Below, one piece after another: positions 16,207 through 47,377 of a DNA stretch of 64,000 nt. Every line of letters begins with the position of its first letter. Within the stretch, counting starts at the first letter, position 1. The translations under genes were made by a program, and so were the position numbers. Source of the DNA: Candidatus Dormiibacterota bacterium (GTDB lineage Bacteria; Chloroflexota; Dormibacteria; Aeolococcales; Bog-877); NCBI GenBank assembly GCA_035534915.1, contig DATLQZ010000111.1, forward strand, positions 16,258-80,257, written 5' to 3'. The notes under the pieces were generated by a model. The model was not told the DNA's origin and made no database searches. It saw only the letters and a program-made list of their open reading frames with translations.

Positions 16207-16552
16207 TGCTTTGGGTGCTCCTTTGCAGGTGGAGTGGAAGGGAATGGTTCGAGCGGGGCATTCAGGTGCGCGAGCGAGCAGTCACCTGAAGTAGTTACCG
16301 GGGGAGCACCAGCGCTGAGGCGCTAGAGCTTGGTTCGCGTGTCCCCCGTGCCACGCCGGCGCATTCGCCGACCCACCGAGCAACTGACCACGGCCATCCC
16401 GACCGTCCGTTCGTTTTTGGACGCGCCCTCTCGATGCGAGACGGGCAGGCCTTCACCCAAAGTCAGCATGCCAACACTCTAGCGCGAAATGACCAGGCTG
16501 CGCCACCAGGCCGCCTCGCGAACCCCATACCTGGGACACTCATTGCCTAACT

Positions 16553-17611: not shown

Positions 17612-17639
17612 GCCCTCCGACCCGACCGCATGACTCCGG

Positions 17640-18383
17640 CTATCCGAGTTCAGCCACCAGCGGGGCGTGGTCGCTGGGACGCGCTCCGGCGCGCTCCTGG
17701 CGATCCACCCAGATCCGGGTGAGGCGAGCTGCGATTGGGGCGCTGGCCAGCAGCAGGTCGATGCGCATCCCGAGTCCACGCCGGAAGAAGCCCTGGCGAT
17801 AGTCCCAGAAGGTGAAGCCCGGGTCGTCCCTGGTGATCGCCAGGTCCACCAGCCCCTCTGCGATCACCGCCTGCAGGGCAGCCCGCTCCTCAGCGGTGAC
17901 GTGAGTAGCTCCCACGAATGCCTCGGGGTCGAAAACATCCCGATCGGTGGGAGCCACGTTGAAGTCGCCCCCCACCAGCAGGTCTCCATGAGCTAGGTCA
18001 TTGGCCACGACCTGGCTCAATTCCTGAAGCCAGGCCAGTTTGTAGGTGAAAAACGGGTGCCCAATCTCGCGCCCGTTGGGGATGTAGACGCTGGCCAACC
18101 GGACTCCCCCGCAGTCAGCGGAGATGAACCTAGGCTCCGGAAGCCCCGTGGGGGCCGGGGTGCTGAGTCCGCGCACCACTCCTTCGATCCCGACACGGGA
18201 GATGATCGCCACCCCGTTCCACCTGCCGTCGCCGTGGTGAGCTGATTCGTACCCCATCGCGGCGAGGGCGTCCCTTGGGAAGGAGGAGTCTGAGCACTTT
18301 GTCTCCTGAATCAGGAGGACCTCCGGATGCTCCTGTTCCAACCAGCCCAGGACCCGCGGCAACCGCGCGGTCAAGGAGTTCAC
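17640..18383 (-). CDS. xthA: Exodeoxyribonuclease III (EEP fold); true start probably upstream at CTG 18404
   Basis: NSLTARL...EVLLIQETK, GDFNVAP, SDHAPLVAEL. The conserved IATWNV motif lies in frame upstream of the first GTG (see findings). Confidence 0.85.
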   Translation of the reverse strand: MNSLTARLPRVLGWLEQEHPEVLLIQETKCSDSSFPRDALAAMGYESAHHGDGRWNGVAIISRVGIEGVVRGLSTPAPTGLPEPRFISADCGGVRLASVYIPNGREIGHPFFTYKLAWLQELSQVVANDLAHGDLLVGGDFNVAPTDRDVFDPEAFVGATHVTAEERAALQAVIAEGLVDLAITRDDPGFTFWDYRQGFFRRGLGMRIDLLLASAPIAARLTRIWVDRQERAGARPSDHAPLVAELG

Positions 18384-29915: not shown

Positions 29916-32900
29916 GCAGGGAGCTCCAAGAGAGGCTGATTGCCCAGCTGACGGCGGCGCAGCAGGAGGTGGTGGGCGAAAGGGGGCGAGGTCCTATCAA
30001 GGTGATTGCCGCCGCTGGCAGCGGCAAGACAACCACGATGGCTGCCCTGTACGCCCTGGCTGTTCTGGACGGGCTGCTGCCAACTCAGATCCTCGCCGTC
30101 ACCTTCACCGAGCGAGCGGCCGAAGAACTAAGGCAACGGATATCGGCCACCTTGGCGGAGGTTGACAGCGCTGGTGCTGGGCGAGGACCTGCCTTGCTGG
30201 ATGGTGCCTGGATCGGAACCTTCCACCATGTGGCACGACGCCTCATCGCCGAGCAGGCATACGCCGCCGGGGTGCCTCGGGATCTCCGCACGCTGGACGA
30301 TCTCGAGGCGAGGATGGAACTTGAGCGCGCCGCTCGAACCGTTCGCGATGAGCTGCCTCGCAAACTGCATAGCCAAGCCCTCTTCCCTCTCAATCTGCAT
30401 CCGCGGGGGCTGCTGGCGATTTCGGACGGGGTGATCGACGCGGTGTCGCGACTGCGATCGACCGAGCTGTCACCGGCGGTTTGTCGCCGCCTTTCGGAAG
30501 CGGCATATCGGCGTTTCGCCGCCGCCGGAGACCCCGAGGAGGAGCTCAGCTGGCATCGTCTGGCGCTGGAGGTGACGTTGGCGGTGTGGGAGGAGTACGA
30601 GGCTACCCTCTCATCTCAGCGATGCCTCGACTTCGACGGCCTGTTGCGGCTGGCGCTGTCTGCCTTGACCCAGTCCCGGGGGCTCGGCGCCTGGTGCCAC
30701 GCAAATTTTCAACTTGTCATCGTCGACGAGTTCCAGGACACCAGCGCCATCCAGAGCGCCCTGTTGGACCAGGTGGTGGGGAGCCGGCCCCAGAAGCTGT
30801 TCGTGGTGGGCGATGCCAGGCAGTCGATTTTCGCCTTTCGTGACGCCAAGCCAGGAATCATGGAAGCCGCCCCCGGACGTTCTCTACGGCTGTTTCGAAA
30901 TCACCGCTCGCGCTGGCCGATCCTCGCTGCGGCCGACCATGTGATTCGGGCGGACCAGCAGTTCGCCGCTGATCTCCCGATGGAGGTCGCTCGCCAGGAG
31001 GCTCAAGCTCTTCCTGTACTTCTGGGATTGGCCCCCGATCCTGACCGGGAGGCCGAGGGCATCGCCGAGTTTCTGGAGTTGTGTCACTGCGAGGGCGTCC
31101 CAGGGCCGGACGGGGAGCTGCGGAAGGTGGGCTACGAGGAGATGGCGGTCCTGGCCTACACGTTCTCGAAGTTGGGGGCTCCTCTGGAGGATGCGCTGAG
31201 ACGCCGGGGAGTTCCGTTTCGGACGGCGACCGGCGGCCTGCTCCGAAGGCCGGAGATTAAGGACGCACTTGCGCTCCTTAGGCTGATCGTTGACCCCGAT
31301 GATGACTTGGCCTGGATCCGGGTGCTGCAGAGCGCCTGGATCAGGGTTAGCGACTCCCAGATGCTGCGAGTTTGCGCTCCCGGGGGTGTCGAGAATCGGC
31401 CGATCTGCGAGCGGGTGGAGGCCAGCCTGAGCGGGGGTGGATGGGACCCAGACGTTGCTGTCAGGGTTAGCCGGCTACTCTCGACCGCCAGAGAGCTGCA
31501 CGAGGCATCCAAGGTGAGGGCGGCGCCGCAGTTGGTGCCAGAGGCTATCGCGGCAAGCGGTCTTTTGGCGTATCACGAGGCGTGGGCGCTCGTGGAACCA
31601 GAGGAGGGGGGTAGGGCGCTGGCGGCGCTGCGATCACTAAATCGGGTTGCGATCTCCAGCCAGGCGAACGGCTCTTGGCTGGGGCTGGGTGGTTTCCTGG
31701 AGAGGCTCGGCACGATGGCGAAGTTGAGCGGGCGAGCTGAACCGCCGCCGCCAGGTGATCGGGCTGTGGTCACCCTGAGCACCATCCACCGCGCCAAGGG
31801 ACTGGAGTGGTCCGTGGTGGTGCTGGCGGACTGTCGGTCGCACCACCAACGGGGCCGCCCCGCCGTGGTGTGGGACCGGGGTGAGGCTTGCTTGGAGATG
31901 CCGGCAGTGGCGGGCAAAAACACCGCGGCAGGTGAGCGCTGGAAGGCCACCGCGGACGCTAGGGTGGCCCTTGAAGAGCACCGTCGGTTGGTGTACGTGG
32001 CGATGACCCGGGCCCGAGATCTACTTCTGGTCTCCACCACTCGGTCCAGGGCAACTGTTGCGGCGGATTCGGTCGAGGAACTCTCGGCTCAGCTCTGGGC
32101 TGGCGCCGCAGCTAAAGGGGAGTTTGCTGAACTAGTGAAGGCGCTGGGAGCAGGCGAGGAGTGGGTTGGGGCTCTTCCGGGATTCCCCGATTCGGTGCAG
32201 CTTCCGTGGGTTCAGGGGCCAGAGGTCTCGCTGCCAGGTCGTTCCGAAGTCGCGGCGGACCGGGCCCTAAGGCAGGCTGATTCTCGGCGGCTGGCAACCA
32301 AGTGGGAGCAGATTGAGGCTTTGGAGATTGGCTCCGTTGCGCGGCGGCCGCTGTCATCGGCACGGCTCAGCTTCAGCGGGCTTCGGCTGCTCGAACTCTG
32401 TCCCCGCCAATACTGGTTCCAACACGTTGCACACTTTCAGTCCCGCAGCCGGGGCGGCAACTCCGAGGACGCGGCAGCGGGGGAGTTTGGCGGCCACGAC
32501 GGTCGCGCTGCAAGGTCTCGGGAGCTGGGCTCGCTGGTCCATGCGGTGCTTGAGCGTGCCCATCGGATCCACCCGGATGCCGTCCCATCCACGTCCGAGG
32601 TGGAGTCTATTGCGGGGCGACTGGGGCAGGGTCTGTCTGACTCTGAGCTGCAACCGGCGCTGGAGTTGCTGCGTGGCTATTGCACGACGGCGGTGGCTGG
32701 GCTGCCCACAGTGGCCACCGAGCTACCTTTCTTCTGGCGGGGCTGGGCTGGGATTGGAGTCCCCCCGCTGGTGGGAGTGGTCGACCGGGTTGCGGTGCTG
32801 GAAGACGGCGCCCGGCTGGTGCTGGACTACAAGACCAACTACTCTCTGAACAGCGAGCAGCTTGTGGCCTATTCCCACCAGCTGCGCCTTTACGCGATGG

Positions 32901-33175
32901 CACTGGACGCGGCCGCTGACCCGTCCGCGGCACCAACCCAGGCGGCGCTGGTGGTGCTCAGGACCCGGCAGCTCATTCCCGTGGACTGCAGCGCCGAGGC
33001 GCGTCAGCGTAGCCGCGAGTGGGGCGCATCATTGGCGGGCCATTTGGCGGGAGGAGGCGAATTCTCGGCGTTGGGCCACCCCAACAGACCCTGCTCAGAC
33101 TGTCCGTTCGAACCTATCTGCCCAGAACGACGAACTCGCCCGCAGGTAGCTGCGGAGAGGACCCAGGACAGCTGA
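29912..33175 (+). CDS. UvrD/Rep-type SF1 helicase with C-terminal PD-(D/E)XK nuclease (AddA/AdnB-like subunit)
   Basis: AAAGSGKTTT, VIVDEFQDTS, GDARQSIFAFRDA, NHRS, TIHRAKGLEW, VYVAMTRARDLL. Nuclease: LLELCPRQYWF, VLDYKTN, QLRLYA, CSDCPFEPIC. 4-nt overlap with the upstream subunit. Confidence 0.9.
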   Translation: MSRELQERLIAQLTAAQQEVVGERGRGPIKVIAAAGSGKTTTMAALYALAVLDGLLPTQILAVTFTERAAEELRQRISATLAEVDSAGAGRGPALLDGAWIGTFHHVARRLIAEQAYAAGVPRDLRTLDDLEARMELERAARTVRDELPRKLHSQALFPLNLHPRGLLAISDGVIDAVSRLRSTELSPAVCRRLSEAAYRRFAAAGDPEEELSWHRLALEVTLAVWEEYEATLSSQRCLDFDGLLRLALSALTQSRGLGAWCHANFQLVIVDEFQDTSAIQSALLDQVVGSRPQKLFVVGDARQSIFAFRDAKPGIMEAAPGRSLRLFRNHRSRWPILAAADHVIRADQQFAADLPMEVARQEAQALPVLLGLAPDPDREAEGIAEFLELCHCEGVPGPDGELRKVGYEEMAVLAYTFSKLGAPLEDALRRRGVPFRTATGGLLRRPEIKDALALLRLIVDPDDDLAWIRVLQSAWIRVSDSQMLRVCAPGGVENRPICERVEASLSGGGWDPDVAVRVSRLLSTARELHEASKVRAAPQLVPEAIAASGLLAYHEAWALVEPEEGGRALAALRSLNRVAISSQANGSWLGLGGFLERLGTMAKLSGRAEPPPPGDRAVVTLSTIHRAKGLEWSVVVLADCRSHHQRGRPAVVWDRGEACLEMPAVAGKNTAAGERWKATADARVALEEHRRLVYVAMTRARDLLLVSTTRSRATVAADSVEELSAQLWAGAAAKGEFAELVKALGAGEEWVGALPGFPDSVQLPWVQGPEVSLPGRSEVAADRALRQADSRRLATKWEQIEALEIGSVARRPLSSARLSFSGLRLLELCPRQYWFQHVAHFQSRSRGGNSEDAAAGEFGGHDGRAARSRELGSLVHAVLERAHRIHPDAVPSTSEVESIAGRLGQGLSDSELQPALELLRGYCTTAVAGLPTVATELPFFWRGWAGIGVPPLVGVVDRVAVLEDGARLVLDYKTNYSLNSEQLVAYSHQLRLYAMALDAAADPSAAPTQAALVVLRTRQLIPVDCSAEARQRSREWGASLAGHLAGGGEFSALGHPNRPCSDCPFEPICPERRTRPQVAAERTQDS

Positions 33176-34810: not shown

Positions 34811-35161
34811 TTAGCGCTTGGCGGGGCGACGGCGGGGGGCGGTCTTGCCGGCTACGGAGCTTTTGAGAGCTGTCGCCGGGTAGAAGCGAACCTTCTGGGT
34901 CGCGGGCACCCGGACCATCTCCTGGGTCTGAGGGTTGCGGCGCATGCCCGCCGCAGTCTCGCGGAGCTTCCACCTGCCGAATCCGGCAATGGCGACCTCC
35001 TCTCCTGCCTCCAGCCTTTGGCCGATCAGGTCGAAGATGAGCTTCAGAGTGTCGTCAGCCATGGCGAAGTTCTGAAAGATGGACTCACTGGTTCCGTCCT
35101 CGTATTGAACGACGACCTTGCTTTGTAGGGTTTTGGCCAACTCGCGACGGTTCATAGACAA
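34811..35161 (-). CDS. HU/IHF-family DNA-binding protein with short basic tail
   Basis: FGRWKLRETAAGMRRNPQTQEMVRVPATQKVRFYP is the HU beta-arm. C-terminal KTAPRRRPAKR tail. Confidence 0.8.
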   Translation of the reverse strand: MSMNRRELAKTLQSKVVVQYEDGTSESIFQNFAMADDTLKLIFDLIGQRLEAGEEVAIAGFGRWKLRETAAGMRRNPQTQEMVRVPATQKVRFYPATALKSSVAGKTAPRRRPAKR

Positions 35162-35294: not shown

Positions 35295-35323
35295 TTGCGT
35301 TAGCGAACAGAAGTTCGTATAAT
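35295..35323 (+). promoter_or_regulatory. Near-consensus sigma-70-type promoter TTGCGT-N17-TATAAT upstream of imuA
   Basis: Read directly: -35 at 35295..35300 and -10 at 35318..35323. The spacer is occupied by the LexA box. Confidence 0.6.
35304..35317. promoter_or_regulatory. LexA operator (SOS/Cheo box) CGAACAGAAGTTCG
   Basis: Perfect CGAAC-N4-GTTCG palindrome abutting the -10 hexamer and directly upstream of an imuA-imuB pair. Confidence 0.75.
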
Positions 35324-35458
35324 CGAGCCGAGCCTCACTCCCTGCTCTGGCGATCTGCTTCGGGGTGCTCTGATGGCCTTCTGGTGGGACTTGATTTGCC
35401 TTTGGACGTTCCCGGTCACGGTGGCGGCAGCGCTGGCACCGCCTCTTTGGAGCTTGCC

Positions 35459-36208
35459 ATGGCGGCGCTGGGTCGTCGCTACGGTCGGGTGGTGGTGCGT
35501 GCCGGTGGGAATCCGAGCCGGGGAGGGCTGCAGACGGGGATCGGATCTCTGGATGCGCTCTTTCCAGAGGCGGGCCTGCCTCGGGGTCGACTGAGCTGGA
35601 TCAGAGGGGAGTCTGGGGCAGGGAACTTTGATCTCGGCCTGGCGCTGTTGGCTCGGCTGTCACTTGCCCTGCCTGTGGCTGTAGTCGACTTCGACCATAG
35701 GGTGGACCCCGGTGATGTGGCGGACTATGGCGGGGAATTGGGGCACTGCTGGGTGGTGCGGCCCAGGACCCTGGAACAGGGCTGGGCCGCCGCGCGCTCG
35801 CTGCTCAAAGCGGGAGTTGAGTTCTGCCTGCTGCAGGCGGCCAAGTGGCCCCCTGTGGGCCGGGCCATTCCTGCCTTGTTGTTGGCAGCGCTGGAGGAGG
35901 GCAGCGGGGTTGCGGTGATGGGAGGAGGGCTGACGGTGCCTCTGGAGGTGGGGGGGAGGCTGAGTGTCGAGCTCTCATGCCGGCGTGTGGGGTGGTCGAT
36001 GGCGCACGGGGATGTGGCCGGAGTCCTGATACATCTTCTGGTTGCGCGCAGCCGAATGTCTCCTTCGGGGAGGGGCTGTGAGCTTCGGATCGACTTCCCC
36101 AGGCCGTACCCAAGGACAGCTGGGATTGTGGATCTGGGGATGCTCAGCTCCTCTGGACTGAGCGACTCCAATCCCTGGACGACTCCTCTTGCAGTGGCGG
36201 AGAGATGA
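35459..36208 (+). CDS. imuA: ImuA-like RecA-fold protein (SulA/ImuA family) of the SOS mutagenesis cassette
   Basis: TGIGSLDALFPEAGLPRGRLSWIRGESGAGNFDLGLALLARL matches the ImuA P-loop-like region. The ORF-track start 35228 lies upstream of the promoter and LexA box, so I preferred ATG 35459 (GGAG 7 nt upstream). GTG 35384 is also possible. Confidence 0.7.
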   Translation: MAALGRRYGRVVVRAGGNPSRGGLQTGIGSLDALFPEAGLPRGRLSWIRGESGAGNFDLGLALLARLSLALPVAVVDFDHRVDPGDVADYGGELGHCWVVRPRTLEQGWAAARSLLKAGVEFCLLQAAKWPPVGRAIPALLLAALEEGSGVAVMGGGLTVPLEVGGRLSVELSCRRVGWSMAHGDVAGVLIHLLVARSRMSPSGRGCELRIDFPRPYPRTAGIVDLGMLSSSGLSDSNPWTTPLAVAER

Positions 36209-37437
36209 ACCAGCAGGTGCGGCTGGCCTGTGTCAGCTTCCCCCATCTCGCTCTCATTCTTGCCTGGCGGACTCACCCTGAGCTCGCTGCAGAGGCCGTG
36301 CTGGTGGGTTCCTTAGACCGTGGTGGGCGGGGGGTGGTGCTGGCCGCCTCTGCGGCGGCTCAGGCGATGGGTGCCCACATCGGCCAGGACCTGCGGCAGG
36401 CGGAGCTTGCCTGCCCTGAGGCAGTGCGGCTGAGCGCCGATCCCATCCGGATAGATCAGTTGCGAGAGCAGCTGCGCATGGCGTTGTACGAATGCAGCCC
36501 CTTGGTGGAGCTGACCACGGATAGTCAGGTCTACCTGGATCTTGGAGGGCGCGACGCCCGCTGGGCGACCGAGGCGGCTCGTGCCTCTCACCTCGGCCGT
36601 TCGGTGCAGCAGGTGCTGGGATACCCACCTGCGGTGGGCATCGGGCAGTCCCGCTTTGTAGCCCTCGTTGCCTCCTCTAAGGCCGGTCCTGGTCGGGTTC
36701 GGATGGTGCCCTACGGTGCCGTTGCCGAATTCCTGGCCGACTGGCCGGTGAGCATGCTTCCGCTCCCACCCAGGACAGTGGAGAGACTGCAAGGATTCGG
36801 GTTGCAAAGCTGTGGTGACTGCCTCTCGATCCCTCTTCCCGACCTGCAGCGGCAGCTTGGGGCTGACGGGCTCACCCTGCATCGACTCTGCCTGGGGCAG
36901 GACACTGCTTTGATCAGCCCTTGGCGGGAAATCCCGCCCTGTGGGGTGCGAAGAGTTCTGGCAGGAGTGGTCGAGGACTCAGAGTCGCTGCGTTTCGGAG
37001 CCGCTGAGCTGGCGGAGCGGCTCGCTGCCGAACTCTCCTCCCTGGGTAGAGCCAGCGGGCGTTTGCGACTGCTGCTCATGGACGAGGATGCGACCGAGGG
37101 CGTTGTGACAGCCGCTCAGCCAGGCGTCTTCTGGGATGAGATAACGCCCCCAGCTCCGGTGGCCACCGCAGAGGAGTTGTTGCCACCCATTCTCAGCCTG
37201 TTTGCCCGGGCGCGCTGCCGGGCCTTGGTGATCGAGATCCACGCCCTGGACCTGACCCAGCCCCCAGCCGCACAGTCGCTGCTATGGGCAGTTGGGGGAG
37301 CCCGGAGCGCTGACATAGGGCGAGCAGCGGCCAGGCTAGCCCAGCGGTTTGGGCCAGAGCTGGTCTGGCGGGTTGAGGTTCGCGCCGGACACCCAGGGGA
37401 TATTCCTGAGGAGCGGTTGGTCTGGAGCCCTGGATGA
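36205..37437 (+). CDS. imuB: ImuB-like Y-family-polymerase homologue (short form, 410 aa)
   Basis: N-terminus LACVSFPHLALILAWRTHPEL...VLAASAAAQAMGAHIGQDLRQAELACPEA has the ImuB/Y-family palm-fingers layout without the acidic catalytic DxD. ATGA overlap with imuA. Confidence 0.8.
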   Translation: MNQQVRLACVSFPHLALILAWRTHPELAAEAVLVGSLDRGGRGVVLAASAAAQAMGAHIGQDLRQAELACPEAVRLSADPIRIDQLREQLRMALYECSPLVELTTDSQVYLDLGGRDARWATEAARASHLGRSVQQVLGYPPAVGIGQSRFVALVASSKAGPGRVRMVPYGAVAEFLADWPVSMLPLPPRTVERLQGFGLQSCGDCLSIPLPDLQRQLGADGLTLHRLCLGQDTALISPWREIPPCGVRRVLAGVVEDSESLRFGAAELAERLAAELSSLGRASGRLRLLLMDEDATEGVVTAAQPGVFWDEITPPAPVATAEELLPPILSLFARARCRALVIEIHALDLTQPPAAQSLLWAVGGARSADIGRAAARLAQRFGPELVWRVEVRAGHPGDIPEERLVWSPG

Positions 37438-37676
37438 GGCGCTTGATGGTCAAGACAGAGAGCTCGCTGCCTGCGGTGGTCGACCTCGGTGACGGACCCC
37501 TGCTGGTGGTGTCGCTGACCGAGCATTGGGTTGTTGAGGTTGGCTGGTGGCGCACGCCACCGGCGCGCTGGGAGCGACGCATCTACTGGCGGGTCCTGCT
37601 CGAGGATGGGAGGTGCGTGGATGTCTATTGGGATGGGGGGCGGCGCCGCTGGCGGCTGGCTCGGCTTTGGGGGTGA
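37434..37676 (+). CDS. 80-aa W/R-rich protein translationally coupled to imuB (ATGA overlap); resembles a detached ImuB C-terminal module
   Basis: HWVVEVGWWRTPPARWERRIYWRVLLEDGRCVDVYWDGGRRRWRLARLWG. From memory, this pattern is fused to the C-terminus of longer ImuB proteins. Confidence 0.5.
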   Translation: MRRLMVKTESSLPAVVDLGDGPLLVVSLTEHWVVEVGWWRTPPARWERRIYWRVLLEDGRCVDVYWDGGRRRWRLARLWG

Positions 37677-37757
37677 CGGCTGCGCGACGCGACTGGCGAG
37701 AACCATCCTCACTCTCGCTCCAGGGATTCCTTAAGCAACATCTGCTAGCTTGAGTTC

Positions 37758-39749
37758 ATGGCTCAGAATAAGCCGTCTGCCAGCCCCAGGGGTGGAGCTG
37801 GCAGAGGCGGCAACCAACCCCGCAAGCCCGCCCAGTGGCGCTCTGTCCAGTTTCTCCTGCCCTTGGGGGTCTTTCTGGCGCTGAATGTGCTCTTTGCGAA
37901 CGTCTTCTTTCCCCCCTCCCAGACCAAGAGCATCACCATTCCGTACAACGTCTTCATCTCCCAGGTGAAGAGCGGCGATGTGACCAGCATCACCAGCACC
38001 GGTGACACCATCCAGGGGACCTTCCGCCAGGCGACCGGGGTCACCGCCACCAGCAAGAACAAGGCGAAGGATTTCAGCACTCAGCTGCCCAGCTTCGCCG
38101 GGGGCCAGCTCGAGACGCTGCTGCAGCAGCACAACGTCACCATAAACGCCAACAACCCCAATCCTCCAGCCAACGTGTTGGTGGTGATCCTGGAGAGCTT
38201 CGGGCCTACCCTCCTTTTCCTTCTGATCTTTCTGTGGTTCATGCGGCGGACCGCGGCGGCAGCCGGCGGCGGCCTGTTCAGTCTGGGCCGCTCCCAGGCC
38301 CGGCTCTACGACCCGGAGCGACCGGCCACCACCTTCCAGGACGTAGCGGGGATCGAGGAGGCGAAGGAGGAACTAGAGGAGATAGTCGACTTCCTGCGCC
38401 AACCGGCCAAGTATCAGCGGCTGGGCGGGACCGTCCCCAAGGGCGTCCTGCTGGTCGGGCTTCCTGGCACCGGAAAGACGCTACTGGCCCGCGCGGTAGC
38501 CGGCGAGGCGGGAGTTCCCTTCTTCAGTATCTCGGCGTCCGAATTCATCGAGATGGTGGTAGGGGTGGGCGCCTCCCGGGTCCGTGACCTCTTCTCCAAG
38601 GCCCGGGAGGCGGCCCCGGCGATCATTTTCGTCGACGAGCTCGACGCCATCGGCCGCAGCCGCAGCGCCGGCCCCAGCTTCGGGGGCCACGACGAGCGAG
38701 AGCAAACTCTCAACCAGATCCTGACCGAGATGGACGGCTTCGACTCGCGAGAGGGGGTCATCGTGCTCGCGGCAACCAACCGGGCGGATGTTCTCGACGC
38801 CGCGCTGCTCCGGCCCGGTCGCTTTGACCGTCGGGTCTCTGTGCTGCCCCCGGATCGGGTGGGGCGGGCGGCCATCCTGAAGATTCACACCAGGGGGGTG
38901 CCTCTGGGGGACGACATCAATCTGGACAACCTCGCCTCGCAAACCCCAGGGCTGGTGGGCGCGGAGCTGCGCAACCTGGTCAATGAGGCGGCCCTGCTCG
39001 CAGCCCGCAAGGAACGGGCGGCAGTCACCATGAGCGACTTCACAGAGGCGCTGGAAAAGGTCCTGCTCGGGGCCGCCCGGCGCATCGTGCTGTCCGAGGA
39101 GGATCGGCAGCGGACGGCCTACCACGAGAGCGGGCATGCTCTGCTGGGTCTGCTCATCCCCGCCGCTGATCCGGTCCGCAGGGTTTCGATAGTTCCTCGC
39201 GGCCGGGCGCTGGGGGTGACCGTCCAGTCGCCGGTGGACGACCGCCAGAACTACCCGGAGACATACCTCAGGGCCAGGATCGTGGGGGCGCTCGGGGGCC
39301 GGGCTGCCGAAAAGCTCATTTACGATGTGGTCACGACCGGGGCGGAGAGCGATCTGCAGCAGGTGACTCAGATCGCGCGGCAGATGGTCGTGCGGTGGGG
39401 TATGAGTCCCAAGGTGGGACCGCTCAACCTTGTTGACGAAGGCGATCAGGGGGTCATGATGATCTCCCAGCGTCCCTACAGCGAGACCACCGCCGAGGTG
39501 ATTGACTCCGAGGTTCGCCGGATAGTGGAGGAGTGCTTCGCGGAGGCGCTGAGGCTGATTGACGCGAACCGCGACAAGCTGGTGGCGCTAACCACTGCCT
39601 TGCTCCGGGAGGAGTCGCTAAACGAGGAGGAGATCCTCCAGGTGACGGGACTGCCGCCCAAGCCGGTCTCTCTGGGGCCCGCTCCGCGTGACCTCAATGG
39701 GCGGTTGGCGGAACCTGAGCCCAGCCCCGCAGTGGTGTCGGCTGGCTGA
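37758..39749 (+). CDS. ftsH: ATP-dependent zinc metalloprotease FtsH
   Basis: Two N-terminal TM helices, Walker [19 protein letters not shown], Walker [13 protein letters not shown] region, zinc site HESGHAL. Confidence 0.95.
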
Positions 39750-39856
39750 TTCACGAGCCGAGCCAGGTAGGATCGGTGCTCCCGGCAATGTCAATCTGAG
39801 GTGCTGTAGCCCTGGCTCCCGTTCGCTTCATCCACTCCGCTGACTGGCAGCTCGGC

Positions 39857-40936
39857 ATGTGGCGCGAGCAGCTGAGCGAGGAGGCTCAGGCTCGCTTCGG
39901 GTCTGCACGCATCGATGGGATCCGCCGCATCGGGCAGCTCGCACTCGAGGTGGGGGCTCAATTCGTGGTGGTCGCGGGCGATGTCTTCGAGTCCAATCAC
40001 CTCGATCGCAGCGTGATCAGACGATCCTTGGACGCGATGGGCGAGGCCCAGGTACCAATCTACCTCCTGCCGGGGAACCACGATCCGCTGCAGCCAGGTG
40101 GAGTCTTCAACTCCAAACTGTTCCGAGAGGAGAGTCCGGAGAACGTGCATGTTCTCCGCGACACCGGTCCGGTCCACCCACTTCCGGGGGTGGAGTTGGT
40201 TGGTGTCCCGTGGTTGTCAAAGCGGCCCGCCCACGATCCTGTCGGCGATCTGTGCGCTGCATTGCAGCCGGTTGGAGGATGGCGAATCGTGGTCGCCCAC
40301 GGCGCGGTGGACGTGGCGAGCCCGGCGCCGGATAACCCAGAGTTGATTAGGGTCGGAATCGCAGAGCAGGCGATACGCCAGGGGCGTCTGCATTACCTGG
40401 CGCTGGGCGATCGGCACTCAACCACTTCTGTCGGCAGCAGCGGGGCTATCTGGTACTCGGGGGCCCACGAGCCGACCCGGTTCAGCGAGGTCGATCCCGG
40501 CAACATCCTGGTGGTGGAGCTGGGGGAGGGGAGCCCCGTGGTGGCTGCTCGGCGGGTTGGCACCTGGGCGTTTACGAACGCCCAGTTCACGCTCGCGGGC
40601 CCGCAGGACCTGGCGGCGGTGTTTGGCTGGCTGGAGGACCAACCAGCGAAGGATAGGACCCTGGTCCGTTTGACCCTGGTGGGGACCCTCTCGATTCAGG
40701 CGATGGCGGAGATGGAAGCTCGCCTCGAGGAGGCCCGCGAGCTCTTTGCCGCCGTACGTCTCTCCTCGCTCAGTGATCTTGCGCTGGCTCCGGACGAGTC
40801 CGACTTCTCCGGGCTGAACCTCTCTGGCTTCGCGGCGACGGCTGCGGACAAGTTGAGAGCGCGGGCCGAGACTGGTGATCAGGCGGCGGCCGATGCCCTC
40901 GCGCTGTTGTTCCGTCTGGCTAGGTCCGCATCTTGA
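39857..40936 (+). CDS. SbcD/YhaO-like metallophosphoesterase (DNA-repair exonuclease); real start probably CTG 39812
   Basis: VVVAGDVFE and LLPGNHDP calcineurin-like motifs. Motif I (RFIHSADWQLG) lies in frame upstream of the first ATG. Confidence 0.8.
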   Translation: MWREQLSEEAQARFGSARIDGIRRIGQLALEVGAQFVVVAGDVFESNHLDRSVIRRSLDAMGEAQVPIYLLPGNHDPLQPGGVFNSKLFREESPENVHVLRDTGPVHPLPGVELVGVPWLSKRPAHDPVGDLCAALQPVGGWRIVVAHGAVDVASPAPDNPELIRVGIAEQAIRQGRLHYLALGDRHSTTSVGSSGAIWYSGAHEPTRFSEVDPGNILVVELGEGSPVVAARRVGTWAFTNAQFTLAGPQDLAAVFGWLEDQPAKDRTLVRLTLVGTLSIQAMAEMEARLEEARELFAAVRLSSLSDLALAPDESDFSGLNLSGFAATAADKLRARAETGDQAAADALALLFRLARSAS

Positions 40937-43605
40937 GAGTGCTGCGGATCGCGATAGCGAATTACCGGGGAGTTGTCCGAGCCGCAGTCGACCTCGAACC
41001 TGTCGGGGTCACCGTGATCGAGGGTCCCAATGGCTCCGGGAAGAGCTCTTTGGCGGAGGCTCTGGCCACGGTGCTGACCACCCCGGAGACCTCCAAAAGC
41101 CAATCCATTCGCGCCATTCAGCCGGTCGGGCAGGACGTGGCGTCTGACATTGAGGTCGAGGTCGAGACCGGTGAGTACCGCTTCATCCTCGCCAAGTCGT
41201 ACAACCGGCGGGCGACGGCGAACCTGACTGTGTTGGCGCCCCATCCGGAGAGCCGCGTGGGCGGCGAGGCTCATGACCGGGCCATCGAGATTCTGGACCA
41301 GACCGGCGTTGACCGCCAACTGATGCGGGCGCTTTGGGTGCGCCAGGGAATGGAGATGGCGCAGGTGGCGCTGCGCGAGTGTCCCTCCCTCGGTCGAGCA
41401 TTGGATATGGCGGCCGGCTCCGTCCCGGCCGGAGAGGCTGAGCAGACGGTGCTGGAAAGTGCGCGCCAGGAGTACCTGCGGTACTGGACTCCGGGTGGCG
41501 CCGAGGCTAAACGGATGGGGGACTTGCGAAGGGGCGTGGAGAGCGCCAGGTCCGATGTCGAGGCAGCTCGACTGAAGGAAGTCGAATTGGAGGAGCAGAT
41601 CTCGCGCAGCGAGCGGTCATTGCGCGCCTTGACTTTGCTGCGGGAGCAGACCGGAGAGCTCCAGGTCGCCGCGACCTTGCACGCGCAGAGTCTGCAGGAG
41701 GTCGAGGGGCTCGCCGCTGAGGTGGAGCTGAGGCGTCAGCACTTTGCCACCGCGGCCGCCGAGGCCGGCCTAGCCCATGCCCGCCAACAGGCAAGGGAGG
41801 CGCTTGTCAGGGCCGTGGTTGAGGCCGAGACCAGGCTGCAGGCATCACTCAGCACCCTGGTCCTGATGGAGGAGCAAGAGGTACCGCAACGGCAGCGGTA
41901 CCTGGAGGCTGAGGAGGCGCTGCGGTTGGCGGGTGTCGCCTCCGATGAGGCGGCGACCCGGCTTCGCGTCCGAGCCGGCGACGAGGCGGTTCTCCACCAA
42001 CAGCAAGAGCTGGCTAGGTTGCGGCAACGCATGCAGGCAGTGAGCGCAGCGGTCCGAAGGCGGGCAGCGGCTCAGGCAGTCGTCGGCGCATCCAAGGTCT
42101 CGGAAGGCAGCCTTGAGCTACTGCGGGAGCAGGAGGGCAAGGTTCGAGAGGGGGCCGCTCGACTGGCCGCAGCCGGGGCTTCCGTTCGGTTCACCGCCAC
42201 CCAAACTGTGGCCATTGGCCGGGGCGAGGAGGTGAGCGAGCTCTTCGCAGGACAGACCCGGAGCTTTACTATTGCCGACTCCGTCGGGCGCTTCAAGGTC
42301 GGTGACTTGGTGGAGCTTGAAGTTGAGCCGGGGACCGGGGCTGCGGGGGAACGGGAGCGGCAGAGAGATCTTGTTGCCGAACGCGACCAAATGCTCCGCG
42401 ACCTTGGGGTCAAGAGCCTGCAGGAGGCGGCGCTCAAGCTCGGGGAACGGCAACGGGCCGAACGGCATCTGGAGGAGGCCGGCTTGGAGTTGGGGTCCAA
42501 TCTGGCCGGGTTGAGCATGGATGAACTGCAGGATCTGACAGCGGCCAAGGAAGCCGAGATTCAGCTGCAGACGAGCTCCCGAAGTTGGCGAGAGGCGGCT
42601 CCGGTGACAGCCGAGAGCGCCCGCGAGCTCGTTCTGAATGCGGAGCTAGAAGACGAGCGAGCCCGCGAAGAGAGGGACCGAACTGAGCGGCGGCGGGATG
42701 CCCTCCGCGATCCTCACCAGCAGGCGCGGCTGAGTGTTCAGGCCGCCAGGGCCGCGGTAAACCACGACCGGGAGGAGAGCGAGCGGTCTGGGGTGGCGCT
42801 GGAACAAGCCCGTTTCTTGGAGACAGACGACTCCCTCGCTGCCCGCGCCGCGGAATCGAGCGAGGCGGCGAAGTCCGCGGAGGTCCAGTGTTCCAATCTC
42901 GCGCACCGATTGGAGGCGCTGGAACCGCGAGTCGTGCGCGACCTCGCCGAGAACTCCGCCAAAGCGATGCGACGCCTCCAGGAGGACATCCACACCGAGG
43001 AGGGCGCGGGGATGCGGGCAGACGCCCAGGTCGAGGCGTTGGCCCCGGTCGGCCTCTTCGACATGAGGGAGTCACGGACCAGAGAGCTGGAGCGCAAAGC
43101 TTCGGACTTTGAGCGTGAGGAGCGGCTCGCGGTGGCGGCGCGCACACTTCTGGAGAGCTTGGAGCGGGCCCGCTCGGAGGCACAGCGGAGCTACCTTGAG
43201 CCACTGCGACAGCAGATTGAGGCGCGGGGCATGGTCGTGTTCGGGTCCGAGTTTGAAGTTCGGCTGGATGCGGAAAGCCTGCAGGTGGCCACCTGTCGTA
43301 TCGACAACAGCTGGCTGGAATGGGACAAGCTGTCAACCGGCACCCAGGAGCAGTTGGCGATCATCGTCAGACTCTCGGCGGCTTTCCTCGCTGCCCCAGG
43401 GGGTGGTGTGCCCCTCATCATCGACGACGCCCTCGGGTATGCCGACGAGGAGCGCTTGGAGCGAATGTGCGTGGTCCTAGGGCGGGCCGGACCGGATGTC
43501 CAGGTGATCGTGCTGACCTGCATGCCCCGGCGTTACCAGCAGATTGGGGGTGCTCGGACGGTGGGCCTGAGCAAGACAGCGCACCAAGCTCCAGCGAGCG
43601 GCTGA
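40933..43605 (+). CDS. SbcC/YhaN/Rad50-like SMC-type ATPase (890 aa, long coiled coil)
   Basis: N-terminal Walker A EGPNGSGKSSLAEAL, about 600 aa of E/R/A/L-rich coiled coil, C-terminal signature LSTGTQEQL and Walker B PLIIDDALGYAD. TTGA overlap with the phosphoesterase gene. Confidence 0.8.
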   Translation: MRVLRIAIANYRGVVRAAVDLEPVGVTVIEGPNGSGKSSLAEALATVLTTPETSKSQSIRAIQPVGQDVASDIEVEVETGEYRFILAKSYNRRATANLTVLAPHPESRVGGEAHDRAIEILDQTGVDRQLMRALWVRQGMEMAQVALRECPSLGRALDMAAGSVPAGEAEQTVLESARQEYLRYWTPGGAEAKRMGDLRRGVESARSDVEAARLKEVELEEQISRSERSLRALTLLREQTGELQVAATLHAQSLQEVEGLAAEVELRRQHFATAAAEAGLAHARQQAREALVRAVVEAETRLQASLSTLVLMEEQEVPQRQRYLEAEEALRLAGVASDEAATRLRVRAGDEAVLHQQQELARLRQRMQAVSAAVRRRAAAQAVVGASKVSEGSLELLREQEGKVREGAARLAAAGASVRFTATQTVAIGRGEEVSELFAGQTRSFTIADSVGRFKVGDLVELEVEPGTGAAGERERQRDLVAERDQMLRDLGVKSLQEAALKLGERQRAERHLEEAGLELGSNLAGLSMDELQDLTAAKEAEIQLQTSSRSWREAAPVTAESARELVLNAELEDERAREERDRTERRRDALRDPHQQARLSVQAARAAVNHDREESERSGVALEQARFLETDDSLAARAAESSEAAKSAEVQCSNLAHRLEALEPRVVRDLAENSAKAMRRLQEDIHTEEGAGMRADAQVEALAPVGLFDMRESRTRELERKASDFEREERLAVAARTLLESLERARSEAQRSYLEPLRQQIEARGMVVFGSEFEVRLDAESLQVATCRIDNSWLEWDKLSTGTQEQLAIIVRLSAAFLAAPGGGVPLIIDDALGYADEERLERMCVVLGRAGPDVQVIVLTCMPRRYQQIGGARTVGLSKTAHQAPASG

Positions 43606-44050
43606 GGTGAGCTAGCTCGGTCCCCGGCAGCCGGCAGCCGCATCTGAGAGTTCCAACCAGGGTTCACTCGGCGGTGCCTTAAGGGGCCGGCAAGTGGGTC
43701 GCAGGACCACTGGAGGGTGTTACTAGGCTGAGAGGACTCCAGACCTCGGACATCATGGGCACGCAGGGCGTGGAGCTGGATCATCCCGGCGGCCAGTGAT
43801 GCCTCCTTCCGGTCCGGACGGCGCAGGTGAACGCTGTGTTCGGGGGACTAGGATCCTGAGCCCGCCGAGCGCTCACCCAGCGAGGTTGAGGCACCTTGGG
43901 CCGTCTCGTCGCTCGGACTTGCTATACAGACCAATACCAGCTAGCCATGCGGATGCCCCTCGAGTCCACCTCCTCAACTCCGAGGGCATGTGGCGAGCCT
44001 TGCGTGCCGCGATTCTGAGCTGTCGTTCCTCATCGTAAGCGTACACCTGT

Positions 44051-47000
44051 TTGTATCATGGTCCGGTGGCAGAGCCAGGATTCGGTGAGTGTTGGGCGCG
44101 ATCCTACTTCTCGTTCCTTGAGGGCTCCCGCTCCCCAGAAGCGATGGTGGTACGCGCCTCCGAGCTTGGAATGACCGCCATAGGGCTGGTAGACCGGGGC
44201 GGTCTATATGGCGCGGTGAGGCTGGTGAGAGCGACTGAACGGGCTGGAATAGGCGCGATGGTGGGAGCGGAGCTGGATCTGACAGCCGGCGGTCGGTTGG
44301 CGGTCATGGCACTGGACCGATCCTCTTACCAACAGCTCTGCCGCGCGGTCAGCTGCGCGCAGCTAGCTGGGGTGAAGGGAGCCTCACGGCTGACGCTATC
44401 AGGGTTGGAGCGGGTCTTGACTGAGGCCGCGGGCGGGACCGCAGCATTTGAGGTGCGAGACGCGGCCATTCCGGACAGATTGAGAGAGCGCCTTCGTCAT
44501 GGGCTCGACAGGGAGCCAGGTGTTCTTCACGCTGTCGAGCCGGGGGAGCTGGATCGCTGCACGGTTCTGGCAGGGGGACCCCATAGTCCCATCAGCCTGG
44601 CCCTGCGGCGCGGAGATCGGCAGGCAGCAGACCAGGCAGCACTGAGCCTGTCCGCGGCCTTTCCTGGCGACCAGTTCCGCCTTTGCCTGCAGCACCATCT
44701 TGAGCCTGGCGACAGCTGGCTGGCGGCTGAAACCGTCGCCTGTGCGGAGCGCACAGGGGTTGGCCTGGTGGCGTCTGGCTCCCCACGCTACGCTCGACCT
44801 CAGGATGGACGTCTGCTGGATGTGCTGTCCGCCATCCGGCACGGCTGCACGCTGGAGGAGACGGCGGCCCGAGGTCTGCTGGCATCAAACCACGAGCGCT
44901 GGATGCGAGGGGAGGCGGAGCTGAGCGAGCTGCTGCCGTATCCCAAGGCCTTTGCGGGAGCGCAGGAGCTGGCGAGCCGGGCTGAGCTGAGGCTGGACTT
45001 CCGGCACAGTCGTTTTCCAGGCTTTCGGGTGCCCGGCGGGGAGAGCCCCGACATCTATCTGGAGCAGCTGTGCCGGAGGGCGCTTCCCGGTAAGTATCCA
45101 GTAGCGTCCGTCGAGGTCGAGGAACGGCTGCGGCATGAGCTTCAGGTCATCTCCCGTTGCCGACTCGCGGAGTTCTTCCTGATCGTGTTTGAGCTGATGG
45201 ACTTCGCCCGCTCTGAGGGAATCCCAGCCCAGGGCAGAGGATCTGCGGCCGACAGCCTGGTCGCCTATCTGCTGAGGATCACCAGGGTCGATCCCATCGC
45301 CCACCATCTGCTCTTCGAGCGATTTCTGCATGAGGAGATGGAGGGAACTCCAGATATCGATATCGACATCTCCTCGGCCCACAGGGAGCGGCTGATTCAG
45401 CATGTCTACGACACCTATGGGGAGTCCTGTACGGGGATGGTCTGCACCGTGATCACGTTCCGGCTGCGAATGGCAATTCGGCAGGTAGGAGCGGCATTTG
45501 GGATACCGCTGGCGTGGGTGGAACGACTTGGGCGGGCGATTGAGCGAGGCGACCCCGACGACCGGCGAACCCTGCTGGAGCGGGTGCTCGGGGTGGCTGG
45601 CGAGGATCCCGACCAGATGATGCGCTCTGTGCCCTGGCGGCAGTTCGCCGAGATGGTGGAGCAGGTGGTCGGGGTCCCGCGCCACCTCTCCATTCACGTT
45701 GGGGGAATGCTGGTGACGGGAGAGCCGCTATGGGACATGGCCCCGCTCGAGAGAGCCTCGATGGATGGCCGGGTCGTGGTGCAGTTCGACAAGGACGACA
45801 TCGAAGAACTCGGCCTCATCAAGATCGACCTGCTCGGGCTGCGGACCCTTTCAGTGGTGGAGGAAACCCTCTCCGAATTGGAGCGGGTGAGCGGGGTGAG
45901 GCCGGATCTGGAGGGTCTCGACTTGGCGGATCCAGAGGTCTACGCGATGTGTGCGAGGGCCGACACCATCGGGGTCTTTCAGGTCGAGTCCCGGGCCCAG
46001 CAGCAGACCCTGCCGCGTGCCAACCCACGGGAGTTCAACGACTTGGTCGTGGCGGTGGCGATCATCCGACCCGGCCCGATTCAGGGGCACGCGGTTCACC
46101 CCTACCTGCGCCGTCGCCAGGGTAAGGAGCCGGTCAGCTACCTCCATCCGCTGCTGGAGCCCATCCTGCGCGACACCCTGGGGGTCATCCTCTACCAGGA
46201 GCAGATCATGGAGATAGCGATGCAGGTGGCGGGCTTCACCGCCGGCCAGTCGGATCGTTTCCGGCGCGCCATGAACCGTCACCGCTCGCGGGTGGAGATG
46301 GCTTCGCTGGAGCATGATTTCCTCCTTGGCTGCACTCTAAAAGGGGTTTCGGGTGCGGTGGCCGCCAGGTTGTTCGAGGCGGTGCGGGGATTTGCTGAGT
46401 TCGGGTTCTGTCGTAGCCACGCAGCCGCCTTTGCGCGCACCGTCTATGAAACCGCCTGGCTCAAGCTCCACCACCCAGCCGCCTATCTGGTGGGGTTGTT
46501 GAATCATCAGCCGATGGGTTTCTATCACCCGTCGGTGCTGGTCGAGGAGGCTCGCCGGAACGGAGTTGTGGTGCTGCCGGTGGACGTCAACCAGAGCCGG
46601 GGCCGATGTCGTCTGGAGACCGATGCGGTGCGGCTCGGATTCAATTACGTGAAGGGGGTTGGGGAGGAGCTGAGGACGAAGCTGGATCAGGAGCGAGAGA
46701 GTGGTGCGTACTCATCGCCGGAGGACTTCTGGCGGCGCACCGGGGTATCCCCAAAAGTCCTCGACTCGCTGGTCATAGTCGGTGCGTTCGACAGCTTCGG
46801 AGAGCCCAGAAGGAAGCTGCTGTGGCGACTCAAGCCGGTGGAGGAGGCGCTTGCCACCATGCGCATGGAGCAAGATGTGCCAGTCCAGGGCGAGCTGCTG
46901 CCCCTGCCAGCTCTGCCGCCGGCGCTTCCCGAGCTGTCCCAGCGAGAGCGGGTTCAGGCTGACTATCGAGTGATGGAATTGACGACCGGCCCCCATCCGG

Positions 47001-47377
47001 TTGAGCTGTTACGTCTTGGACTGAACCGCTTGGGGGTGGTGAGGTTGGCCCACGCGCGGTCTGCATCAGCGGGCAGTAGGCTGCTGGTGGCCGGTTTGGT
47101 GATCACCAGGCAGGCACCCCCGTCAGCGCAGGGGATGCGCTTTTTCACCCTGGCTGACGAAAGTGGTCATCTGGACCTGGTTTTCTCTCCGCAGGTCTAT
47201 CGCGAAAACCGTTCGCTGGCCAGTCATGAGTCATTGCTGTTGGCGCTGGGAAGGCTCAGGTCAGCGGACGGGGTTGCCAGCTTGATGGTGGAGAGGCTCC
47301 TTCCCCTCCCCGGATCCACGGAGGGAGCCGACGGGGGGGAGCTCGTGCCATCTGCCACATCTCACGACTACCACTGA
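44051..47377 (+). CDS. dnaE2: Error-prone DNA polymerase III alpha paralogue DnaE2 (ImuC)
   Basis: PHP-like N-terminus (YFSFLEGSRSPE), palm/fingers motifs PDIDIDISS, IHVGGMLV, KIDLLGLRTLS, GVFQVESRAQ, IIRPGP, and a C-terminal OB fold. At ~1100 aa its length is typical of DnaE2, not DnaE1. Confidence 0.9.
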   Translation: MYHGPVAEPGFGECWARSYFSFLEGSRSPEAMVVRASELGMTAIGLVDRGGLYGAVRLVRATERAGIGAMVGAELDLTAGGRLAVMALDRSSYQQLCRAVSCAQLAGVKGASRLTLSGLERVLTEAAGGTAAFEVRDAAIPDRLRERLRHGLDREPGVLHAVEPGELDRCTVLAGGPHSPISLALRRGDRQAADQAALSLSAAFPGDQFRLCLQHHLEPGDSWLAAETVACAERTGVGLVASGSPRYARPQDGRLLDVLSAIRHGCTLEETAARGLLASNHERWMRGEAELSELLPYPKAFAGAQELASRAELRLDFRHSRFPGFRVPGGESPDIYLEQLCRRALPGKYPVASVEVEERLRHELQVISRCRLAEFFLIVFELMDFARSEGIPAQGRGSAADSLVAYLLRITRVDPIAHHLLFERFLHEEMEGTPDIDIDISSAHRERLIQHVYDTYGESCTGMVCTVITFRLRMAIRQVGAAFGIPLAWVERLGRAIERGDPDDRRTLLERVLGVAGEDPDQMMRSVPWRQFAEMVEQVVGVPRHLSIHVGGMLVTGEPLWDMAPLERASMDGRVVVQFDKDDIEELGLIKIDLLGLRTLSVVEETLSELERVSGVRPDLEGLDLADPEVYAMCARADTIGVFQVESRAQQQTLPRANPREFNDLVVAVAIIRPGPIQGHAVHPYLRRRQGKEPVSYLHPLLEPILRDTLGVILYQEQIMEIAMQVAGFTAGQSDRFRRAMNRHRSRVEMASLEHDFLLGCTLKGVSGAVAARLFEAVRGFAEFGFCRSHAAAFARTVYETAWLKLHHPAAYLVGLLNHQPMGFYHPSVLVEEARRNGVVVLPVDVNQSRGRCRLETDAVRLGFNYVKGVGEELRTKLDQERESGAYSSPEDFWRRTGVSPKVLDSLVIVGAFDSFGEPRRKLLWRLKPVEEALATMRMEQDVPVQGELLPLPALPPALPELSQRERVQADYRVMELTTGPHPVELLRLGLNRLGVVRLAHARSASAGSRLLVAGLVITRQAPPSAQGMRFFTLADESGHLDLVFSPQVYRENRSLASHESLLLALGRLRSADGVASLMVERLLPLPGSTEGADGGELVPSATSHDYH

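Follow-up and report, generated by a model that had tools for sequence, protein, structure and literature searches.

A split-ImuB mutasome locus in Candidatus Dormibacterota, probably divided into four transcription units within a conserved neighbourhood

We analysed a stretch of 64,000 nt (hereafter the window; contig DATLQZ010000111.1) from a metagenome-assembled genome (MAG) of an uncultured soil bacterium belonging to Candidatus Dormibacterota, in which a 12-kb block on the forward strand encodes an ImuA-like protein, the inactive polymerase homologue ImuB, an 80-residue protein (orf80), the protease FtsH, an SbcD/SbcC-like nuclease-ATPase pair and the error-prone polymerase DnaE2 (Table 1). 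Mutasomes of the ImuA-ImuB-DnaE2 type drive damage-induced mutagenesis and the evolution of drug resistance in many bacteria. The original prediction had described the block as a split and expanded SOS mutasome locus. Family scans support the gene identities that it gave for imuA, imuB, ftsH, the nuclease pair and dnaE2, and both the 81-bp gap between orf80 and ftsH and the separation of dnaE2 from imuA-imuB are real. The evidence set out below indicates that the block is probably made up of four co-directional transcription units lying in a collinear neighbourhood and not of one expanded SOS operon.

Table 1. Features of the mutasome locus, with positions counted from the first nucleotide of the window; promoters and operators are predictions
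Feature	Position	Strand	Basis or details
SOS promoter of the imuA operon	35295..35323	+	-35 TTGCGT 35295-35300; LexA (Cheo-type) box CGAACAGAAGTTCG 35304-35317; -10 TATAAT 35318-35323
imuA-like gene, inactivated RecA paralogue, 274 aa	35384..36208	+	RecA matches in Pfam and NCBIfam
imuB, inactive Y-family polymerase homologue without the usual C-terminal domain, 410 aa	36205..37437	+	PF00817
orf80, standalone ImuB-C (DUF6504), 80 aa	37434..37676	+	DUF6504 matches, hhalign, coupled to imuB
ftsH promoter, leaderless type	37739..37751	+	extended -10 CATCTGCTAGCTT, then 6 nt and ATG 37758; motif conservation
ftsH, AAA+ zinc metalloprotease	37758..39749	+	TIGR01241, 753 bits (cut-off 600)
Possible -10 TAGGAT of the sbcD/sbcC pair	39768..39773	+	precedes a GAGG Shine-Dalgarno and the CTG start; predicted
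SbcD/Mre11-like metallophosphoesterase, 374 aa from CTG	39812..40936	+	PF00149, weak TIGR00619 sbcd match
SbcC/Rad50-like SMC-type ATPase, 890 aa	40933..43605	+	SMC_N residues 5-881, AAA_23
Probable remnant of a DUF429 gene 3'-end	43932..44016	-	blastn 75% identity over 65 nt, E=5.5e-5; frame break
dnaE2 promoter, leaderless type	44041..44059	+	degenerate LexA box GTACACCTGTTT 44041-44052; -10 TATCAT 44054-44059; 6 nt; GTG 44066
dnaE2, error-prone C-family DNA polymerase, 1103 aa	44066..47377	+	NF004225, 981.3 bits (cut-off 939)

Related loci were collected by an alignment of ImuB, which gave 40 loci from species-representative genomes, and by an alignment of the nuclease, which added one metagenome locus for a total of 41; all window proteins were then mapped onto these loci (numbered L004, L005 and so on where they have to be told apart). 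The metagenome scan for sbcD relatives returned one locus. All close ImuB homologues come, like the window, from Candidatus Dormibacterota.

The first gene of the block begins at GTG 35384, a position that aligns to an ATG in L004-L007 and L035; the longer open reading frame (ORF) from 35228 was not adopted because the SOS promoter lies inside it. Its product is a RecA homologue (E=1e-11 against RecA in the PDB) that lacks the Walker A Lys/Thr in all orthologues, reading GESGAGNF instead of GPESSGKT, and in which the Walker B Asp is replaced in every lineage. The match to the ImuA family model NF033429 (ImuA_translesion) is weak, at 22.9 bits against a cut-off of 150, and RecA models score similarly (25.8-31 bits). 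The protein is thus a RecA homologue without Walker A or B, encoded beside imuB and preceded by a LexA box, and from the motif losses and the RecA homology we assign it as a dead RecA paralogue.

The imuB frame follows with a 4-nt ATGA overlap. Its IMS domain is matched by PF00817 with E=1e-16, an ImuB profile aligns to the DinB structure 7yll with E=1e-27, and the window protein shares 25-29% identity over 99% of its length with proteins named ImuB. The positions of the catalytic residues D8 and D10 are occupied by C and S (N-terminus RLACVSFPHLAL), that of D103 is S, T or A in 18 of 18 orthologues and that of E104 is variable, from which loss of acids the ImuB core is predicted to be catalytically inactive. 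A clamp motif, QSLLW, in which Q357-x-x-L360-W361 is invariant, and a conserved RecA-NT-like motif, RLAQRFGPELVWRV, are both assigned by sequence pattern only. After the latter motif the 410-residue protein stops, with no ImuB-C fused to its C-terminus. Because in about 37 species ImuB-C is instead the product of orf80, a gene of its own that overlaps imuB, we class the window protein as a split ImuB, that is, an inactive Y-family polymerase homologue (iPolY) plus ImuB-C.

The identity of orf80 with the C-terminal domain of ImuB had been missed in the original prediction, which had correctly noted the coupling of the three frames: orf80 overlaps imuB by a second 4-nt ATGA, and about 33 species share this overlap with the imuB stop. 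The small gene is present in at least 37 of 40 loci. DUF6504 (PF20114) matches 21 of 24 orf80 orthologues, with a best E of 2e-7, and the window copy scores 22.2 bits, just below the cut-off of 24.2. Homologues outside the phylum are proteins of roughly 95 residues, some of them labelled ImuB, and hhalign places orf80 on the last ~50 residues (446-494) of canonical ImuB proteins of 483-609 residues with a probability of 87.8% and E=3.3e-6. The AlphaFold2 (AF2) model is all-beta with six strands (pLDDT 88.6), and a fold search of the PDB with this model gave no match, in accord with the literature, where ImuB-C is a beta-barrel that has no relatives of solved structure (PMC12926913). Together, these comparisons identify orf80 as a predicted ImuB-C that is translationally coupled to imuB.

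Upstream of this three-gene unit, the LexA box CGAACAGAAGTTCG fits inside the 17-nt spacer between TTGCGT and TATAAT and is the one perfect GAAC-N4-GTTC in 64 kb. At least one perfect match was also seen in 46 of 100 shuffles, so a single box is unsurprising by count alone; the imuA box matters through its position, because that position is conserved in the relatives: most of the 41 loci show the arrangement of -35 TTGCnT, LexA box and -10 TAyAAT before imuA. A position weight matrix (PWM) built from 60 boxes and trained on perfect cores was run over 63985 window positions, and the imuA box received the top score, 23.8, the minimum among the intact training boxes being 14.5. On these grounds the imuA unit fits the LexA (SOS) regulon, with a Cheo-type operator that overlaps the promoter and to which LexA is predicted to bind. 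The second PWM match, at 16399 (a 1-mismatch site, 16400-16413), was considered as a recA or lexA operator and rejected as a chance match, its neighbours being asd and thrC.

In most relatives the locus has a pair of LexA boxes, at imuA and immediately in front of dnaE2, and both adjoin a -10 hexamer. The original prediction had seen a single box at the head of the locus; this stands for perfect boxes, and a degenerate second operator lies before dnaE2, whose own putative leaderless promoter had gone unnoticed. Both public gene callers and an alignment of the upstream regions place the start of dnaE2 at GTG 44066, which makes the preceding non-coding gap 460 bp (43606-44065) and corrects the earlier figure of 445 bp. 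The encoded polymerase has five Pfam domains (PHP, DNA_pol3_alpha, finger, HHH_6 and OB). At the homologous position before dnaE2, CGAACATCAGTTCG is found in about 26 relatives, where TATGAT or TATCAT comes immediately after it and the start codon another 6 nt on; the intact box of L011 is an example. The window counterpart reads GTACACCTGTTT-G-TATCAT-N6-GTG with two core mismatches. This site scores 7.8, below the intact-box minimum, and still ranks third among all scored positions (3/63985). Similarly degenerate dnaE2 boxes occur in the nearest clade, L005-L008. From this pattern, the dnaE2 operator is predicted to be intact in most relatives and decayed in the lineage of the window.

The clade nearest the window shows further deviations. 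The imuA operators of L005, L006 and L008, as well as that of L033, depart from the core by one or two bases (AAAC or GTTT) with their position kept, and the dnaE2 operators of L005-L008 read GCAC, GTAC, GTGT or GTTT, again at the same position. A change in the specificity of LexA, or in how tightly the SOS genes are controlled, may have taken place in this clade.

The gap before dnaE2 had been proposed as a place to look for a lineage-specific operator. Scans for GAAC-N4-GTTC, for sites with one mismatch and with the PWM returned nothing there besides the degenerate site at the dnaE2 promoter. A candidate at about 43830, GAACGCTGTGTTC, was discarded for its wrong spacing (N5) and lack of conservation. 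A structured RNA in the gap was likewise rejected, with no Rfam match, a folding z-score of +1.4 and no meaningful repeats.

Between orf80 and dnaE2 lies ftsH, whose product has all its catalytic motifs intact (Walker A GLPGTGKT, Walker B IIFVDE, the SRH motif and HESGH). The motif CATCTGnTAGCkT, a TGn-extended -10, is found with 6 or 7 nt to the start codon in essentially all loci; each of 33 related loci has a single copy, which in every case immediately precedes ftsH, and the window too has just one. The motif has also remained with ftsH in L043, where the gene is 3.4 kb away from orf80. No Shine-Dalgarno sequence can be read before the ftsH ATG, and scans of the window with the GAAC-N4-GTTC pattern, with one mismatch and with the PWM found no LexA site upstream of the gene. 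These features are consistent with expression of ftsH from a promoter of its own as a leaderless mRNA and argue against a dependence of ftsH on the SOS promoter.

That ftsH nonetheless works as a part of the SOS mutasome locus, with read-through raising FtsH or occluding its promoter and with FtsH proteolysis controlling the mutasome, is an alternative that draws on its placement. The gene is co-directional with the imuB unit, its promoter abuts the orf80 stop with a gap of 21-31 nt in most species, no intrinsic terminator was detected between the two, and the adjacency of orf80 and ftsH is kept in 38 of 39 loci although imuB has diverged to 52% identity. Moreover, the interposition of ftsH is a phylum-specific trait, because ImuB-C directly precedes dnaE2 in Chloroflexota-type outgroups. 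This conservation of order has to be set against that of the unrelated SCP2, epimerase and SBF transporter genes, which are equally syntenic, and against the near-invariant ftsH promoter, retained in L043 despite the insert. Internal translation of ftsH from a read-through mRNA would be poor because there is no Shine-Dalgarno, FtsH is the best-conserved protein of the block (73-95% identity across the phylum), as expected for a housekeeping gene, and our literature search found no paper linking FtsH with ImuB. We therefore regard a functional role of ftsH in the mutasome locus as unlikely. The specific mechanism, in which SOS-driven passage of polymerase through the ftsH promoter would alter FtsH output, either by occlusion of the leaderless ftsH mRNA or by re-initiation from the polycistronic mRNA, and FtsH would then limit the lifetime of the mutasome, is quite improbable; if true, it would connect the SOS response to a membrane AAA+ protease in a way not known before.

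A leaderless start may not be peculiar to these genes. Several operon-leading ORFs of the window without a Shine-Dalgarno, at 7886(-), 12510(+), 25761(-), 37758(+), 44066(+), 48363(-) and 51055(+), have a TAnnnT hexamer exactly 6 nt (in one case 7) upstream of their first start codon, which points to frequent use of leaderless mRNAs in this Dormibacterota genome.

The third part of the block is the nuclease-ATPase pair, whose frames overlap by a 4-nt TTGA, in line with the coupling described before. The nuclease scores 32 bits against TIGR00619 (cut-off 77.65) and matches Mre11 in the PDB over its first 97 residues with E=3e-4. Its GDVFE and GNHD motifs are present and motif I reads D-W-Q instead of D-x-H, as is typical of a family, found in Actinomycetota and Chloroflexota, that has over 6000 members and the motif HTADWQLGM. 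The gene needs the CTG at 39812 as its start because the first ATG comes only after the conserved motif I: no ATG, GTG or TTG precedes this essential motif (VRFIHSADWQLG), and the CTG, which sits within a conserved GCCCTGG, is also the start used in the NCBI annotation. In L004 and L035, different canonical starts lie nearby. The ATPase has an intact Walker A motif (GPNGSGKS) and a start that aligns to the GTG/ATG starts of L004 and L044; because no CxxC zinc hook was found anywhere in its 890 residues, we call it SbcC-like and do not file it as SbcC. An anti-phage defence role was considered with PADLOC and rejected, the nuclease having no match and the ATPase only generic N-terminal P-loop matches.

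At this site the pair is confined to the window, L004, L035 and L044. In L004 and L035 an apparent loss of dnaE2 was rejected as probably an artefact of the 10-kb flank; L044 has dnaE2 5.3 kb beyond sbcC. The proposed synteny test came out differently for the two intervening elements: the position of ftsH between imuB/orf80 and dnaE2 is conserved in Dormibacterota, and that of the nuclease pair is not. The interval between ftsH and dnaE2 (the slot) is the most variable stretch of the block, from 0.35 to 5.5 kb, with genes mostly on the reverse strand that encode MFS transporters, DUF429, CHAD and DUF11 proteins, a Mutator-family transposase, an ABC transporter, MarR, a CLC channel and a GGDEF protein. 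DUF429 is the commonest gene of the slot, and the probable remnant in the gap before dnaE2 corresponds by blastx to the last 28 residues of the DUF429 gene of L004 (19285-19995, reverse strand); it is likely to be what a deletion beside dnaE2 has left of the usual slot gene. In the close relative L005, the transposase gene occupies 16920-18356 (reverse strand) of the slot, which fits a rearrangement hotspot.

It could be argued that the pair is a selected, linked expansion of the damage response, co-expressed for breaks or hairpins at stalled forks in the manner of the LexA-regulated yhaONM operon. The membership of yhaONM in the LexA/SOS regulon of Bacillus, invoked in the original prediction, is borne out for yhaO and yhaN (PMC3896406), the pair is of a DNA-end-processing type, it follows ftsH directly and in the same orientation in each of the four lineages with the pair, its divergence is like that of its neighbours, implying long residence, and adnAB-like genes also lie in the neighbourhood. 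On the other side, about 36 of 40 species representatives lack the pair and have unrelated cargo in the slot (transporters, DUF429, CHAD or DUF11 proteins, or a transposase), and in close relatives a CLC channel, GGDEF, ABC transporter and MarR genes, all unrelated, stand between sbcC and dnaE2. Pattern and PWM scans of the window found no LexA box or near-match upstream of sbcD, where the pair has its own Shine-Dalgarno and a conserved motif, the TAGGAT region GGTAGGATCG being shared by the window and L004 and appearing as GATAGGATCG in L035. The nuclease family is, in addition, widespread in other phyla. A damage-response linkage of the pair is thus unlikely, against what the original prediction had suggested, and as part of the four-unit reading we consider the pair to be probably lineage-specific cargo in a variable slot.

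The collinearity extends well beyond the mutasome genes. Throughout the phylum the order is adnA, adnB; SCP2, epimerase and HU on the reverse strand; imuA, imuB, orf80 and ftsH; the variable stretch; dnaE2; and SBF on the reverse strand, and it is kept across Dormibacterota even at ImuB identities down to 52%. Because the whole 20-kb neighbourhood is conserved and clearly unrelated genes (adnAB, SCP2, epimerase, HU and SBF) are equally collinear, conserved order here is no evidence of a functional link. The two proteins encoded at 26934-33175 on the forward strand, of 993 and 1087 residues, each combine a UvrD helicase with a PD-(D/E)XK nuclease; their genes overlap, and the pair resembles an AdnA/AdnB- or AddAB-type end-resection pair. 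Since this pair sits 2 kb upstream of the mutasome locus and is syntenic across the phylum, the neighbourhood can be called rich in DNA-repair genes. The HU-type DNA-binding protein gene (34811-35155, reverse strand) is divergent from the imuA promoter region, a pairing kept in nearly all loci, and has a clear GGGAGG Shine-Dalgarno, in contrast to its predicted leaderless neighbours. Multi-kb insertions are seen at other junctions in L043 (1317-4685, orf80/ftsH) and L037 (5091-7900, HU/imuA); a Pfam scan of the ORFs in the L043 insert matched no family. Elsewhere in the window, an exodeoxyribonuclease III gene (xth, 17640-18383, reverse strand) adjoins asd and thrC.

The window derives from a MAG and several related records carry implausible taxonomic labels, so we asked how far the arrangement could reflect a chimeric contig produced in assembly or binning. 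The same 22-kb sequence was recovered in three independent assemblies (JGI, NCBI and ENA) with 99.5-100% protein identity, the order is reproduced in the 41 loci including a chromosome-level MAG of 2.49 Mb, and GC content is flat across the region (0.63-0.67), all of which makes an artefact extremely improbable. The labels in question belong to SMAG GenBank records (L014, L015, L022/L033 and L039) that are titled Micrarchaeaceae archaeon, Acidiferrales, Nanopelagicaceae or Verrucomicrobiia and have a Dormibacterota-type locus; these titles are probably taxonomic mislabels.

Several points weigh against a clean division into four units. All the promoters, operators and leaderless starts described here have been placed from sequence and conservation. 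No intrinsic terminator was found between genes anywhere in the region, and the overall count is below chance expectation; because none is detectable between orf80 and ftsH and the gap there is so short in most species, read-through from the SOS promoter into ftsH is likely, and some coupling may result. Since the PWM was derived from perfect cores, the low score of the window dnaE2 site overstates the weakness of that operator. Finally, the nuclease pair has diverged between the window and the L035/L044 lineages about as much as its neighbours have (sbcD 65-68%, imuB 64% identity), which suggests long residence in one subclade rather than a recent random insertion; the pair also appears to have been replaced in the L005-L008 lineages.

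With these points taken into account, the four-unit reading would work as follows. A LexA-repressed promoter would drive the coupled imuA-like gene, imuB core and orf80 as unit 1; ftsH would be transcribed from its own conserved extended -10 as the leaderless mRNA of unit 2; the SbcD/SbcC-type pair would form unit 3 as lineage-specific cargo, presumably expressed independently; and dnaE2 would be the leaderless unit 4 with its own -10, which the LexA box overlaps in most of the phylum. DNA damage would lead to LexA cleavage and the induction of unit 1 and, where the operator is intact, of unit 4. The products may then assemble into a mutasome of the ImuA-ImuB-DnaE2 type in which ImuB is supplied as two polypeptides and ImuB-C, by analogy with published models, would serve as the DnaE2-binding module. 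Such a natural two-polypeptide ImuB would make the roles of the core and of ImuB-C separately testable, and the locus shows clearly, for an uncultured phylum as a whole, how its SOS operators and predicted leaderless promoters are arranged. The recruitment of a protease and a nuclease pair into an SOS operon finds little support.

Split imuA'-imuB/dnaE2 cassettes and standalone ImuB-C have been described before (PMC6511836), and ImuB-C is a candidate DnaE2-binding module (PMC6511836; PMC12926913). A survey of 2026 treats the DnaE2X-iPolY-ImuB-C-RecA module as a 'split ImuB' and possible ancestor of ImuA-ImuB-DnaE2, and found ImuA only with fused ImuB (PMC12926913); its main text contains neither 'Dormibacter' nor 'Chloroflex', and our literature search for a Dormibacterota mutasome found no description. 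Neither the 2019 nor the 2026 survey contains the combination of a dead RecA paralogue with an inactive Y-family protein, ImuB-C and DnaE2, the last encoded apart here and probably under separate control; this composition could be an intermediate or a parallel solution in the origin of the mutasome.

The nuclease-ATPase pair resembles B. subtilis YhaO/YhaN (SbcF/SbcE), E. coli SbcCD and actinobacterial SbcD-like/AAA pairs in having the nuclease followed by a tightly coupled ATPase. By similarity, it likewise joins a calcineurin-type phosphoesterase related to Mre11/SbcD with an SMC/Rad50-like ATPase, and it differs from these pairs in having no LexA box, a D-x-Q instead of a D-x-H in motif I and no CxxC hook.

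Among mutasomes, that of M. tuberculosis (Rv3395c-Rv3394c; Rv3370c) shares with the window an inactive RecA-like protein and an inactive Y-family ImuB with clamp and RecA-NT motifs, encoded together and apart from dnaE2; the mycobacterial imuA'-imuB and dnaE2 units are damage-inducible and required together for induced mutagenesis (PMC6511836, PMC10421592). The window differs in that ImuB is encoded by two genes, for a 410-residue core and an 80-residue ImuB-C, that dnaE2 lies only 6.4 kb off on the same strand, behind ftsH and the variable slot, and that the ImuA-like protein is too divergent for the ImuA family cut-off. In the Kyrpidia tusciae-type module (PMC6511836, PMC12926913), which is also DnaE2-associated, a standalone ImuB-C gene comes after that of an inactive Y-family protein. 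Systems of this type reportedly have no imuA in the operon or the genome and are thought to use RecA (PMC6511836, PMC12926913), whereas in Dormibacterota a dedicated dead RecA paralogue is encoded upstream with an ATGA overlap and dnaE2 is detached behind ftsH. Two outgroup contexts of DUF6504 have iPolY, ImuB-C and DnaE2 contiguous, exactly as in the Kyrpidia-type module (L045), or iPolY and ImuB-C alone (L046), and neither an ImuA-like gene nor ftsH was found in these two contexts. The canonical cassette of Proteobacteria such as Pseudomonas aeruginosa and Caulobacter has the same three modules and a LexA operator at its head; there, imuA-imuB-dnaE2 is contiguous under a single operator with a fused ImuB, whereas the Dormibacterota locus would be divided into two units, with a split ImuB and, for most members of the phylum, a second operator.

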